Below are positions 31,794 to 35,738 of a DNA stretch of 43,235 nt, piece after piece (the first letter of the stretch is position 1; each line of letters begins with the position of its first letter). The notes under the pieces were generated by a model. The model worked only from the letters and a program-made list of their open reading frames with translations, ran no database searches and had not been told where the DNA came from. A program made the translations under genes and the position numbers. Source of the stretch: a virus. Taxonomy: Duplodnaviria > Heunggongvirae > Uroviricota > Caudoviricetes. The stretch is taken from the IMG/VR virus record IMGVR_UViG_2645727669_000018; one strand, given 5' to 3'.

Positions 31794-32287
31794 TAAGCCC
31801 CCACGTAATTCCCTGACAGATACCACTCATCACTCGATACAGCGCGCTTGCTGCTTTTCCGTAAACACTGCTCACGACGCGCCAGAAAATTGTTTCGTTC
31901 TGGCTGGGAGTGGCTTTCACGGAATGCCGCCATCCACACCGTTGCAGCACGACGGTATAAGCCCCTGGACTCCAGTTCTTCCGCCTGGCGGGTCAGGCAC
32001 AAAATCTCCCGCGGGTCGTTAGTGCCGACATAGAAATTGCGCACAGGTCTGGTTTCACGAACTGGTTGCGGTTCCGCCTCCTGCGCTCTCTCAGTCAGGC
32101 GCGGGAAATGTCTGCGTGTATCCCCTTCACAACGGTGAGCCACACGACCACTCTGACGTAACTTGCTTGCTGACTGCAGAACGCGCTGCCGTGAGTAACC
32201 TGCAAAAGCATCCGCAATGTCTCCGGAAGTACACCCCGGATGGGCTTCAATGTATTTCTGAACTTCATTCAAAAGACTCATGATCAC
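31793..32287 (-). CDS. Hypothetical protein (possible small regulator)
   Basis: 164 aa, Arg-rich; ATGA overlap with O-like gene stop; weak recollection of PerC/ANR-like regulators. Confidence 0.45.
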   Translation of the reverse strand: MIMSLLNEVQKYIEAHPGCTSGDIADAFAGYSRQRVLQSASKLRQSGRVAHRCEGDTRRHFPRLTERAQEAEPQPVRETRPVRNFYVGTNDPREILCLTRQAEELESRGLYRRAATVWMAAFRESHSQPERNNFLARREQCLRKSSKRAVSSDEWYLSGNYVGA

Positions 32288-33225
32288 CCCCTGAATCCTG
32301 CCGGGATCTGGCTGTAGTCCACGTTGTCGTAACTGGCTTTGAAGTACGGGTCTTCGCGTTTTTCGGTGTACGTGCTGACGGACGGCGATAAGCGCAGGGA
32401 AAGCTCATCCCATTTTTCCCGCAGCTTCGACGGGCTGAGCACGTTACGGCACCAGAACGGATCGCGGCTGACGCGGCTGTACATCTCGCAGATTTGTTTG
32501 TGAGTACGACCATCCTGCACACACATCAGGCGAATTTCGTTTGCCCAGGCTGTCCAGTTCGGTTCTTTGGGACGAACCACCTCGCCGTCACATTCGGCGG
32601 CCTGCTCGTACAGGGCGATGATTTTTTTCCAGAGCCACTGTGCGCAGGTCAAATCATCCTGCGTTCCCCACTGGCGCTTTTTAGGGCTGAATACAACCGC
32701 ATCAGGATGGCGAGTTAAAAACTCCTGTTCAGCCGTCTGCGTGTCCGGTTGCGAAGCGTCCGGACGAGAAGTTTTTTTATCTGACGGATCATGTTTTGAT
32801 TTTACTGACGGATCCCCGCCAGATTCTGACGGGTGAAAACCCGCTTTTTTGCCAGATTTCGACGCATCAAATTTTGACGGGTCAGATTTTGATGCGTCAG
32901 ATTTTGACGGGTCAGAATCTGACAATTGAGAAAATGCCGCTGCCTGAAGCTTCGCAACGTTAAGCTGATAAACATTCGACGCATTGCGGTTACCCTGGCG
33001 ACGCGCCTTACGCGTTAACCAGCCTTCTGCTTCCAGCCGTGCGATAGCCGTTCTGACGGTACTCATCCCCGCGCCAATCTGACGGGCAATGGTTTCAATT
33101 GATGGCCAGCACACACCTTCGTCATTACTGAAATCAGCCAGGCGGGCCATAATTGCCACGCTGGATAATTTCATGCCTGACGCAGCGCAACCATCCCATA
33201 CATAGCCGGTTAATTTAGTGCTCAT
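32284..33225 (-). CDS. Replication initiator (lambda O-like, N-terminal HTH)
   Basis: 313 aa; N-terminal winged-helix region, central repetitive linker (DPSKSDASKSDPSKFDASKS) encoded by tandem DNA repeats, distinct C-terminal domain; position after cro/CII-like genes. Confidence 0.7.
   Translation of the reverse strand: MSTKLTGYVWDGCAASGMKLSSVAIMARLADFSNDEGVCWPSIETIARQIGAGMSTVRTAIARLEAEGWLTRKARRQGNRNASNVYQLNVAKLQAAAFSQLSDSDPSKSDASKSDPSKFDASKSGKKAGFHPSESGGDPSVKSKHDPSDKKTSRPDASQPDTQTAEQEFLTRHPDAVVFSPKKRQWGTQDDLTCAQWLWKKIIALYEQAAECDGEVVRPKEPNWTAWANEIRLMCVQDGRTHKQICEMYSRVSRDPFWCRNVLSPSKLREKWDELSLRLSPSVSTYTEKREDPYFKASYDNVDYSQIPAGFRG
32780..32930. repeat. Iteron-like tandem repeats (candidate replication origin) inside the initiator gene
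   Basis: About 8 copies of (a)tttTGACGG(g/a)TC-like units spaced 16-18 bp, read directly from the sequence; analogous to ori-lambda iterons within O. Confidence 0.6.
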
Positions 33226-33573
33226 GACCGACCTCTATTTCCCTGAATTTACGACGAAACTGTTCGAGCGGACTGAAGCATTCATGCTCATAGCCTTCGC
33301 GGAGGTAGATAACCCGTTGTGTTTCCGGCTCCCAACGAATGACTCTGACGGGCACTCCGTAGTGATCTTTGAACCAGCGGTTAACTTGTCGCAAAGGACT
33401 GTCTCCTTCTGCCGGTTGAAATCACCCACAGCCCACTCTGCAAAGCTGTGGGTTACAATTTCCCTGTCACCTGGTACATTTACTGCATAGCAATACTCCA
33501 CCTTCGCTTTTCCACCCGGTACAGGAAGCGCAATCAGTTGCGAGCGACGGTAGTGTGTTGTTAAACTGTTCAT
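33215..33573 (-). pseudogene. Hypothetical gene with apparent frameshift
   Basis: Frame A starts ATG 33573 (ATGA-coupled to upstream gene); a second frame, open from 33421, reads ...[44 protein letters not shown]... and ends TAA 33215-33217, coupled to the O-like start; span 359 nt is not a multiple of 3. Confidence 0.4.
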
Positions 33574-34121
33574 GCGTTAGTTTCTCCACAGTCACGACAC
33601 GCCACGGCGCCCGGAGCTGCACACTCGCGGGCGTCATTACTTTCTGAAATGCAAAAAATTTTGTAGACCAGTGCTGCATGCTCCTGCAGCTTCGAAATTG
33701 AGAGGTACAGCTCGTCGTTAATTGCTGTCTTCTCATGCGGTTCCACTACACCGTCTTCAATTGCTGAACGAATCTGTTTTGAATAACTGCCGATCTGTTC
33801 AATGACCTCCAGCAGGCGTTGGTTGATATCGGCGTTGTCCACATCCTCGACATCAGGAAGAGACACAAAGACGCCATTTGCAGACTGCGCCACAGCGTCA
33901 GCAATGAAGTGAGTTCCACCAGCACGTTGCAAAATCATTGCCCATCCCAGCGGGAAAATCTGATCGCCATCTACACGAAGGCGGTTAAATAATGCGTTCT
34001 CTGTTACATCCAGCCAGTCAGCAGCTTCAGCGTACCCCCCCGGCAACGCTGCGATAGTTTTTCTGACAGCTTTCACGTACCACTCAGGCTGTTTTTCTAC
34101 TTTCCAGTGATGCTTACCCAC
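33570..34121 (-). CDS. Putative CII-like early regulatory protein
   Basis: 183 aa directly downstream of cro, overlapping it by 8 nt; weak recollection of phage CII (CP76-type) family. Confidence 0.45.
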
Positions 34122-34374
34122 GGTTCACCTCCTGTTCCTGTGGTTTAAACCCATTCTGGTTTTGGCTAGATTGAAAACGTGCCGGATAAAGAATCTGCAT
34201 TTCGCTGACTTCACCCTTAAAAAAATTGGCTAAACGTTCTGCAAGCTCGATAGATGGAATCTGCTCCAGCCTCTCAATACGACTCAACGTCGCTGGATTG
34301 ACTTGAACACCCGCAGCAACATGCTGCAAAGTGAAACCATGCGCCTTACGCACATTTCGTAATGGTGATTGCAT
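34114..34374 (-). CDS. cro: Cro-like HTH repressor
   Basis: 86 aa HTH protein (HGFTLQHVAAGVQVNPATLSRIE) divergent from cI; GGAGG SD 5 nt upstream. Confidence 0.8.
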   Translation of the reverse strand: MQSPLRNVRKAHGFTLQHVAAGVQVNPATLSRIERLEQIPSIELAERLANFFKGEVSEMQILYPARFQSSQNQNGFKPQEQEVNRG

Positions 34375-34471
34375 ATGCCCTCCAAATATTGCGCGTTATG
34401 CATGTTATTTCACGCAATTATTTTGCGCAAGTTGATTTGCTTATCACGCAATAAAGAAATGTAATAAACGC
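34375..34471. promoter_or_regulatory. Immunity control region (divergent promoters and operators)
   Basis: 97-bp cI-cro gap with at least three TTGCGC/GCGCAA-type dyad motifs (attgcgcgtta, cacgcaattattttgcgcaa, tcacgcaataaa); candidate PR TTGCGC-17-TAACAT on minus strand. Confidence 0.6.
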
Positions 34472-35164
34472 ATGAACATAGGAAACCGAGTCAGACAACT
34501 TCGCCAAGCGAAGAACATGAAAATCGCCGATCTCGCTGAAGCGATAGGAGTAGATGCGGCGAACATCTCGCGCTTAGAAACGGGTAAGCAAAAACAATTT
34601 ACCGAACAAACACTGAGTAATATTGCCAAGAGCTTAGGTGTTGATATTGCTGATCTCTTTACCTCTGCCCACAAAAGTAATACTGTATATAAAAACAGTA
34701 ATAATGAGGATGTTGCGCAGGTGAAGGATGTGTTCCGTATTGAAATGCTGGATATCAGTGCCAGTGCGGGAAATGGCCTTATCCAGGGCGGTGATGTCAT
34801 TGATGTGATTCATGCCATCGAATACAGAACTGATAATGCTGTATCAATGTTCGGCGGACGACCAGCCAATCACATCAAAGTTATCAACGTTCGTGGGGAC
34901 AGTATGTGTCCAACCATTGAGCCAGGAGATCTCATCTTCGTTGATGTCAGCATCAATCAGTTTGATGGTGATGGTATATATGTCTTTGGTTTTGATGATA
35001 AAATATACGTTAAAAGACTTCAAATGATTCCTGACAAACTGCTGGTGATTTCTGATAACCAGATTTACCGTGAATGGGGAATTACTAGCGAAAACGAACA
35101 CCGATTCATGGTCTTTGGAAAGGTCTTAATCAGTCAGTCGCAAACCCTTAAGAGACATAATTAA
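34472..35164 (+). CDS. cI: cI-type repressor (HTH plus S24 LexA-like peptidase domain)
   Basis: N-terminal HTH; C-terminal GDSMCPTIEPGDLIFVD with catalytic Ser and downstream VKRL Lys (Ser-Lys dyad). Confidence 0.9.
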   Translation: MNIGNRVRQLRQAKNMKIADLAEAIGVDAANISRLETGKQKQFTEQTLSNIAKSLGVDIADLFTSAHKSNTVYKNSNNEDVAQVKDVFRIEMLDISASAGNGLIQGGDVIDVIHAIEYRTDNAVSMFGGRPANHIKVINVRGDSMCPTIEPGDLIFVDVSINQFDGDGIYVFGFDDKIYVKRLQMIPDKLLVISDNQIYREWGITSENEHRFMVFGKVLISQSQTLKRHN

Positions 35165-35183
35165 CCTCAATATCCCATCCATC

Positions 35184-35208
35184 GGCCACCGAAAGGTGGC
35201 TTTTTATT
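35184..35208 (+). terminator. Rho-independent terminator after cI
   Basis: ggccacc-gaaa-ggtggc followed by ttttt, 20 nt after the cI stop. Confidence 0.65.
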
Positions 35209-35218
35209 ACCTATAAAT

Positions 35219-35255
35219 TTGCATATCTCGCAAATATCACTTGCATATCTCGCAA
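35219..35255. repeat. Two 15-bp direct repeats TTGCATATCTCGCAA (candidate operator/PL-type sites)
   Basis: Identical copies at 35219-35233 and 35241-35255; each an imperfect dyad TTGC-N7-GCAA; at the start of the leftward operon. Confidence 0.45.
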
Positions 35256-35462
35256 TTTAATTTTATCTTTTGTTCCAGACCAACTACAGGATTACAACAA
35301 AATCTGGTTGCAACACGGTGCATGTGTCGTAAGCAGTCAGTAAATGTCAAAAACGAACAGGCAGGACGCCCACGAAGTAGCCGCCTGGGGCATATGAAGT
35401 CCAGGATGATTCGTTGAGTCATGTTGTGCCACTAGGCACTCATGTTAAAGCAGGTGTATGAA

Positions 35463-35738
35463 ATGAAAGTCCAGATTTTAAACAATAACTGTGAAGTCGT
35501 TTGGTCATACGACATAGCCGCCCCTGTAGATCAGAGCGGCGATAGCTGGACCAATGGGAAACATCAGATTATGGCTGGAGTTGTGTTCTCTTTACGCCGT
35601 GCTTTGGAACAGGCTGAAGTATTTCCATCAGACCCTGAATGGAAATGGCCTTTTTCTATTTGTCCAAATTCGGAGAGCACATTTCAGAAAATTGGTCAGA
35701 AAGTCGCACTCGAAGAGCATCAGCCAACTGTTTCCTGA
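35463..35738 (+). CDS. Hypothetical protein (first gene of leftward operon)
   Basis: 91 aa from ATG 35463 with AGGTG SD; overlaps a convergent minus-strand ORF. Confidence 0.4.
   Translation: MKVQILNNNCEVVWSYDIAAPVDQSGDSWTNGKHQIMAGVVFSLRRALEQAEVFPSDPEWKWPFSICPNSESTFQKIGQKVALEEHQPTVS

Follow-up and report, generated by a model that had tools for sequence, protein, structure and literature searches.

In the lambda pair Rz/Rz1, a small gene, complete and equipped with its own ribosome-binding site, is embedded out of frame in a longer open reading frame (ORF) of the same strand, and both frames encode functional, conserved proteins. In genes with programmed -1 frameshifting, such as dnaX, IS3-family transposase genes and the phage tail assembly genes G/GT, one coding segment in frame 0 is followed by another in frame -1. 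The immI operon of phage P1 contains a chain of coupled ORFs, where Icd, a division inhibitor, is encoded in a coupled position before ant. Overlapping phage genes and coupled operons are thus a known kind of feature. A locus that resembles each of these systems in part is found on the minus strand at positions 33215-33573 of the IMG/VR record IMGVR_UViG_2645727669_000018, 43,235 nucleotides (nt) of Caudoviricetes DNA, below called the window. Its DNA, ORF and neighbours are essentially those of the gene ymfM in the e14 prophage of Escherichia coli K-12, annotated there as one protein of 112 amino acids (aa). A sequence-only reading of the window described this locus as an early gene split between two frames by a frameshift or in a pseudogene. 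Comparison with homologous loci makes it probable that the region is no broken gene and consists of two independently initiated genes overlapping out of frame, with the outer frame held open for the passage of ribosomes.

The first of the two frames, frame A, starts with the ATG at 33573-33571, which shares the sequence ATGA with the TGA stop (33573-33570) of the CII-like regulator gene ymfL. The ORF (33235..33573; K-12 ymfM, b1148) has 112 codons and is terminated by TAG at 33237-33235; it appears in the ORF list, aligns with K-12 and matches phrog_1170. Codons 1-59 (33397..33573) are called here the N-module. Frame B, which is the -1 frame relative to A, stays open from 33421 up to its TAA at 33217-33215. 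It contains a gene of 59 codons with a TTG start (33215..33394), whose product belongs to the Pfam family DUF4222 (PF13973; 69 bits with the cut-off of 27, E 2.6e-19, profile positions 1-52 of 53). The Shine-Dalgarno (SD) sequence AAGGAG of this gene (33403..33408) has its 3' end 8 nt ahead of the TTG. Frame A extends 52 codons past the N-module and covers nearly all of the DUF4222 gene. In this dual-frame overlap of 160 nt (33235..33394), A is free of stops and B is constrained at the amino acid level. Between the frame-A TAG and the ATG of the next, O-like gene at 33225 there are 9 nt, and the frame-B TAA follows 8 nt beyond this ATG; the final 11 nt of the DUF4222 gene are shared with the O-like gene, and the frame-A TAG overlaps the GAGG of the latter. 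The coordinates, the quoted frame-B peptide and the 359-nt span (359 mod 3 = 2) of the sequence-only reading are correct on the minus strand, and so are its coupling of the ATG to the CII-like gene and its second frame ending at the O-like start.

The frame under selection was identified using 83 collinear near-identical copies of the locus (44 haplotypes). At nt 1-179, all 12 variable sites are synonymous in frame A. At nt 180-336, 16 sites vary, and 12 of them fall on the third codon position of frame B and are synonymous in B; each of these 12 changes the frame-A residue, in some cases radically (E>V, C>Y, G>E/V, S>L). The last site synonymous in A is 33400 and the first site of the B type is 33390, and thus the switch occurs at the frame-B start codon, 33394. 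Both ORFs, A with 112 aa and B with 59 aa, are retained in 82 of the 83 copies. The change of coding frame claimed from the sequence alone is therefore real: constraint acts in A at 33573-~33397 and in B at 33394-33215, and this two-frame signal is far beyond chance. The opposite outcome, with frame A conserved to its C-terminus and the second frame unconserved, was checked for and is not observed. The junction had been sought within 33238-33421. It is indeed located there by comparison of homologues, but it is a start codon and not an indel.

Diverged loci come from Phytobacter, Atlantibacter, Entomohabitans, Klebsiella and Pantoea and from phages mEp390, Eeyore, SfV, ST64B, Stx phages, Hafnia yong2 and others; the DUF4222 relatives were gathered partly by tblastn on phage records and by a single-protein scan. 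The set with overlapping genes comprises 22 loci in 14 clusters with less than 85% nucleotide identity, so that the arrangement is found in 14 diverged lineages. Between lineages, the N-terminal half retains a protein-like pattern in frame A, with the third codon position most variable and amino acid identity of 46-95%. All 19 invariant columns in the alignment of 24 homologues fall within frame-A residues 1-50. The four-fold sites of frame B in the overlap differ by 0.35-0.90 between lineages and by at least 0.44 between different clusters, which is near saturation, and hence the frame-A tail has no amino acid constraint of its own. The N-module is the only part of frame A under purifying selection at the amino acid level. 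Thus the similarity to Rz/Rz1 is incomplete: in the overlap, amino acid selection is seen in frame B only, whereas the outer frame shows only stop avoidance. In the AlphaFold2 model of the frame-A product, the predicted local distance difference test (pLDDT) score is 62-80 for residues 1-66, below 50 for residues 68-112, and 57 overall. The model of the DUF4222 protein, with pLDDT 84, is a small beta-barrel, predicted to be of the Tudor/SH3-like type. The C-terminus of the 112-aa product had been considered implausible; it has indeed low pLDDT and no amino acid conservation, but it is not a sign of a frame error.

The DUF4222 gene has a conserved start of its own, as expected of an inner ORF. 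TTG, ATG or GTG is present at one aligned position, five codons ahead of the conserved R-x-[FY], in 21 of the 22 overlapped loci: TTG in E. coli, ATG or GTG elsewhere (TTG, five ATG and five GTG among 11 lineages). The exception is Hafnia yong2, where the gene starts further upstream. A GGAG-type or G-rich motif precedes the start by ~7-13 nt in all 11 lineages; when 17 loci were read, most had a GGAG-type SD sequence, which is weak or absent in loci L109 and L110. The near-invariant frame-A residue C61 is encoded by the NTG of the DUF4222 start and the next base. The length of 59 aa fits the typical range of the family, 59-70 aa. A hairpin is predicted at 33392-33410 of the minus strand, in which AAGGAG pairs with UCCUUU and part of the TTG start is taken in. 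Such a hairpin could tie the initiation of DUF4222 to its opening by frame-A ribosomes; the fold is statistically not unusual and seems not to be conserved in L008 (Phytobacter sp. V91), the one other lineage inspected. At ~1698-1700 of L008, TGA replaces the conserved tryptophan codon of DUF4222 (R-stop-F for RWF), and frame A is open for 113 codons. Either a nonsense mutation arose here recently or the assembly is wrong.

The two modules also occur as separate genes. In L010 and L012, DUF4222 is reduced to a few C-terminal codons and the N-module is kept in a product of 75-78 aa. In L101, a 73-aa N-module gene is followed by a KilA-N/ANT gene and then by a separate DUF4222 gene of 61 aa. Thus these three loci have an N-module with no DUF4222 directly downstream, and in all of them unrelated short ends stand in place of the tail. 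Conversely, stand-alone DUF4222 genes are found behind unrelated genes in phiNP, in an Elizabethkingia phage and in several IMG/VR contigs. Among the overlapped loci, at least four unrelated N-modules occur, including those starting with MNSLTANNRLSQ, MNSVNRFRPAKQ and MTSLTAFNRLPQ.

Frame A is open over DUF4222 in all 22 overlapped loci, that is in all 14 clusters, and the third frame contains 2-9 stops over the same stretch. When codons are replaced by random synonymous ones, with the DUF4222 protein and the local codon usage fixed, frame A stays open in a fraction of 0.03-0.15 per lineage. A stop in frame A requires a frame-B codon ending with TA or TG before A, or with TA before G, and therefore L/I/V codons ahead of a codon starting with A were counted in one representative of each cluster. 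In this risky context, none of the 42 codons of the overlapped genes end with A or G. In the harmless context of the same genes, the number is 24 of 63 (Fisher 6e-7), and in stand-alone DUF4222 genes 22 of 48 (Fisher 1e-7). The first stop in the +1 frame occurs at DUF4222 codon 52 or later in every overlapped cluster, and at codons 0-31 in seven of the ten stand-alone clusters. The +1 frame of stand-alone members usually has 2-6 stops, whereas here and in the 14 related lineages it is overprinted by the upstream frame. Shared ancestry alone does not explain the open frame A, since synonymous sites of frame B are near saturation between clusters. At the level of sequence comparison, these counts show that the run-on of frame A is kept free of stops by selection wherever the two genes abut, while the encoded amino acids change freely. 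In L114 (a Providencia phage), L116 (Yersinia phage YeP2) and L120-L123 (IMG/VR), no upstream ORF enters DUF4222, and the +1 frame is open for 67-89 codons. These may be cases of a further overlapping ORF or of a recent loss of the overlap.

The positions of starts and stops are those of a coupled operon, with the upstream stop at the downstream start or a few nucleotides from it. In 11 lineages, frame A terminates in the range from ~12 nt upstream to 11 nt downstream of the ATG that starts the next gene. In loci with no adjacent DUF4222, the frame ends in ATGA (L010), 8 nt past the ATG (L012) or 20 nt past the ATG (L101). Over the 11 lineages and these three loci, the range reaches from ~12 nt upstream to ~23 nt downstream. 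The junction of ymfL and frame A is ATGA in the window and in most lineages; two Atlantibacter loci have a GTG start, and in L093-L096 and L104 a short gap takes the place of the overlap. Together with the data above, this geometry suggests the following mechanism. The first gene, starting with the ATG at 33573 and coupled to ymfL via ATGA, would make the conserved N-module of ~60 aa. The second gene, starting with the TTG at 33394 behind AAGGAG, would yield the 59-aa DUF4222 protein in an amount of its own, probably smaller, through initiation at a weak codon inside a translated stretch. The ribosomes that have translated ymfL would be carried in frame A to the start of O, which would allow for termination-reinitiation coupling and shield the mRNA from polarity. 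Ribosome transit, and not the tail peptide, is then what selection would keep. If this is true, frame-A nonsense mutations silent in DUF4222 would lower the expression of O.

Several other explanations were considered. In a single sequence, one gene split in the window by a frameshift mutation or a sequencing error and left as a pseudogene would look just like this locus, with its halves in different frames over 359 nt. However, the same layout is present in the K-12 reference, with 99% mean column identity in a four-sequence alignment, the same 112-codon ORF, and also ymfL and an O-like gene (ymfN/oweE) as neighbours, as well as in all but one of the close copies. Among 5,426 complete E. coli genomes, 2,701 match the 601-nt query, and in ~1,900 the match covers at least 80% of its length (by nucleotide match only); this segment is 97-99% identical in SfII, SfIV, Kati, PhiR49 and other viable phages; SfII and SfIV, which carry the arrangement, are inducible. 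The layout is shared by 14 diverged lineages, each half is under purifying selection in its own frame, and the modules are separate genes elsewhere. This explanation has almost no probability left, and sequencing error or a pseudogene is ruled out by the conserved arrangement. The indel or slip of a single base that the sequence-only reading required is not needed, as frame B has its own start codon and, in most loci, an SD sequence. A programmed -1 frameshift could join the N-module to DUF4222 in a fusion of ~118 aa, besides or instead of the separate products. Frame B is the -1 frame of A, and AAGGAG lies just upstream of the junction; in dnaX, internal SD sequences stimulate frameshifting. 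In-frame fusions of the N-module and DUF4222 do exist in databases (P0031, P0053, P0060 and P0065, 102-119 aa, from Logan and ENA assemblies). However, the junction differs in all four, each is represented by 1-14 member sequences where the 112-aa form has more than 1,800, and they look like sporadic indels or assembly errors. No X_XXY_YYZ heptamer is present in the permitted zone of frame A in the window, and neither slippery heptamers nor N_NNX tetramers proved conserved when 17 loci were scanned, with GGGGGGC in L100 and L105 only. The RNA around the junction (101 nt) has no unusual structure (z = -0.85, 40 of 200 shuffles fold equally well). In L008, L096, L106 and L108, a frame-B stop one codon upstream of the DUF4222 start makes a fusion impossible. 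Moreover, an aligned position where ATG, GTG and TTG replace one another marks an initiation codon. Thus, although the order of the segments is that of known frameshift genes, the slippery heptamer, a conserved stimulator and a conserved open -1 window are all missing, and the downstream segment has its own conserved start. Frameshifting at this locus is very unlikely.

The two remaining explanations concern the status of frame A. DUF4222 might be the sole real gene, with all of frame A, including the N-terminal half, a spurious ORF in an untranslated spacer of 175 nt. This would agree with the annotation by the NCBI pipeline PGAP, which has nothing between ymfL and DUF4222, and with the absence of Pfam and NCBIfam family matches for frame A. 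However, it does not agree with the selection on the N-terminal half described above, that is with the exclusively frame-A-synonymous polymorphisms, the most variable third codon positions and the 19 invariant residues. Neither does it agree with the ATGA that frame A shares with ymfL in the window and in most lineages, or with the persistence of the N-module where DUF4222 is deleted, and it can hardly be credited. Alternatively, the 112-aa YmfM could be a true product of dual coding, frame A being open because the tail is functional, for example as a disordered Ser/Thr-rich segment required to inhibit division. Stop avoidance in all 14 clusters is what dual coding would produce, expression of the 112-codon ORF of K-12 leads to filamentation (bioRxiv 10.1101/2020.11.19.390815), and a function depending on length or composition only would need no sequence conservation. 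On the other hand, all 12 frame-B-synonymous polymorphisms change the tail, the four-fold sites diverge between clusters as given above, and residues 68-112 have the low pLDDT noted there. Further, the tail is swapped for unrelated short ends in L010, L012 and L101, and the same frame runs into the next gene in SfV, ST64B and Stx phages. We consider a functional tail rather unlikely.

Two independently initiated genes with an outer frame open for ribosome transit thus remain the probable interpretation, and the following points weigh against it. In the literature, no ribosome profiling or proteomics was found for the repressed prophage operon, and the use of either start codon in vivo is a prediction from sequence. 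The rationale for coupling comes from geometry alone. The frame-B stop is also at the O start, and translation of DUF4222 could do the coupling alone. A tail needed just for its length or disorder would give the same signature. Three of the ten stand-alone clusters (L114, L116 and L120) are also largely open in the +1 frame, and hence the background rate of openness may exceed the simulated one. Finally, the set of lineages is a sample of database hits and not a complete census.

In SfV, ST64B, PhiR63_1, Stx phages and Hafnia yong2, the frame does not end at the next start and runs on for 227-405 codons into a gene of the Rha/Ant type. This run-on crosses genes of the antisense RNAs isrK and C4 with significant Rfam matches. 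These RNA genes (57-84 bits) directly follow DUF4222 in SfV (L105, 1412-1600) and ST64B (L106, 1412-1600), and likewise in L112 (1012-1200), L113 (997-1181) and L119 (1012-1200). They fall within long annotated proteins: orf37 of SfV ('transcriptional regulator'), Sb41 of ST64B, and proteins named 'Ant', 'Rha' and 'Ash family protein'. By coordinate arithmetic, the Pfam Phage_ASH match at residues 117-210 of SfV orf37 is the stretch with both RNA genes. The real antirepressor in these phages probably starts at the internal ...EAAIMAT... site. The relatives SfV, ST64B, Stx phages and Hafnia yong2 thus resemble the icd-ant operon of P1, as they have C4 and isrK between DUF4222 and the Ant/Rha gene. 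In contrast, the window has no C4 or isrK RNA (Rfam scan of 32000-35500) and no ant gene, and the downstream gene is O-like. Homology to P1 Icd is not detected by hhalign, with a probability of 0.2% for the frame-A alignment and 0.04% for the DUF4222 alignment. One tentative possibility, doubtful when taken as a whole, is that frame A serves over DUF4222 as a 'ribosome conveyor' to O, indifferent to sequence and selected only for the absence of stops, and, jointly, that the division inhibitor SfiC may be DUF4222 or the 60-aa N-module and not the 112-aa YmfM. If the conveyor exists, the frame in phages of the SfV/ST64B/Stx type would carry ribosomes over isrK and C4 into the antirepressor gene.

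The annotation of the locus is conflicting. In PHROGs it is represented by three families: the 112-aa form (phrog_1170, which matches frame A at positions 1-112 with E 3.9e-70), an N-terminal form of 63 aa (phrog_20047, which matches frame-A residues 1-63) and the 59-aa DUF4222 form. In a genome with 100% identity, PGAP annotates only the 59-codon ORF of frame B (WP_001250269.1, DUF4222 domain-containing protein) and leaves blank the 175 nt after ymfL where the N-module lies (33395-33569; 1632-1806 in L001). In the top-listed matching genomes, PGAP also has DUF4222 only, and the homologues of DUF4222 carry the NCBI annotation of this name. The K-12 record (NC_000913.3) and several phage records list the 112-aa YmfM and omit DUF4222, although only codons 1-~60 of it evolve as a protein here. 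Thus each annotation tradition misses one gene: the curated K-12 annotation has no DUF4222, and PGAP has no N-module. Searches of NCBIfam and of Protein Data Bank (PDB) sequences gave neither product a name or a solved structure. No description of this instance of overlap was found in the literature searched.

The neighbouring genes are as follows. The cI-like repressor gene is on the plus strand (34472-35164), and on the minus strand it is followed by a cro-like gene (34114-34374) and by ymfL (33570..34121), whose product of 183 aa matches Pfam Phage_CP76 (E 1.3e-13) and NCBIfam NF041471, phage_reg_YmfL (168 bits, cut-off 90). The O-like replication initiator gene (32284..33225, minus strand, 313 aa) contains the Pfam domain HTH_36 (E 4.2e-11) and is called 'DNA replication protein O' or 'primosomal protein' in phage records. 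Inside it, five to seven tandem iteron-like repeats of 15 nt (CAGATTTTGACGGGT and variants) are situated at 32776-32927 of the minus strand, as expected of a lambdoid origin within O. The only match in the Rfam scan (E<=1) is a spurious sub-threshold mir-5880 on these repeats. No relevant promoter or terminator was found between the N-module and DUF4222 halves.

The 112-codon ORF of K-12 is annotated as "cell division inhibitor YmfM", and ymfM is recorded as the gene of SfiC. When the ORF is cloned in pBAD24 and expressed, Z-rings are lost and the cells filament, and neither SulA, SlmA nor MinC is required (Ansari et al., bioRxiv 10.1101/2020.11.19.390815), and the library clone D1-8E is ymfL(142-185)-ymfM-ymfN(1-92) (PMC3614548). 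By coordinate arithmetic, the cloned ORF of 339 nt contains codons 1-53 of DUF4222, which span the entire Pfam domain, and includes the native SD sequence and TTG of this gene, and D1-8E contains the entire DUF4222 gene. The published clones therefore carry both coding frames and cannot tell apart the N-module, the 112-aa product and DUF4222 as the inhibitor. No data on frame-specific ymfM mutants were found in the literature searched (DUF4222, ymfM, filamentation screens).

The finding thus reopens the question of which product is SfiC. If the 112-aa YmfM is a real 60-aa module with an unconstrained run-on over a second real gene, the polypeptide on record may not be the agent that blocks the formation of the FtsZ ring, and pull-downs, structure determination and suppressor mapping may target the wrong polypeptide. 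More generally, the locus is a clean natural case of selection against stops with no selection on the encoded residues. Its repetition in 14 lineages makes translational coupling over an embedded gene directly testable.

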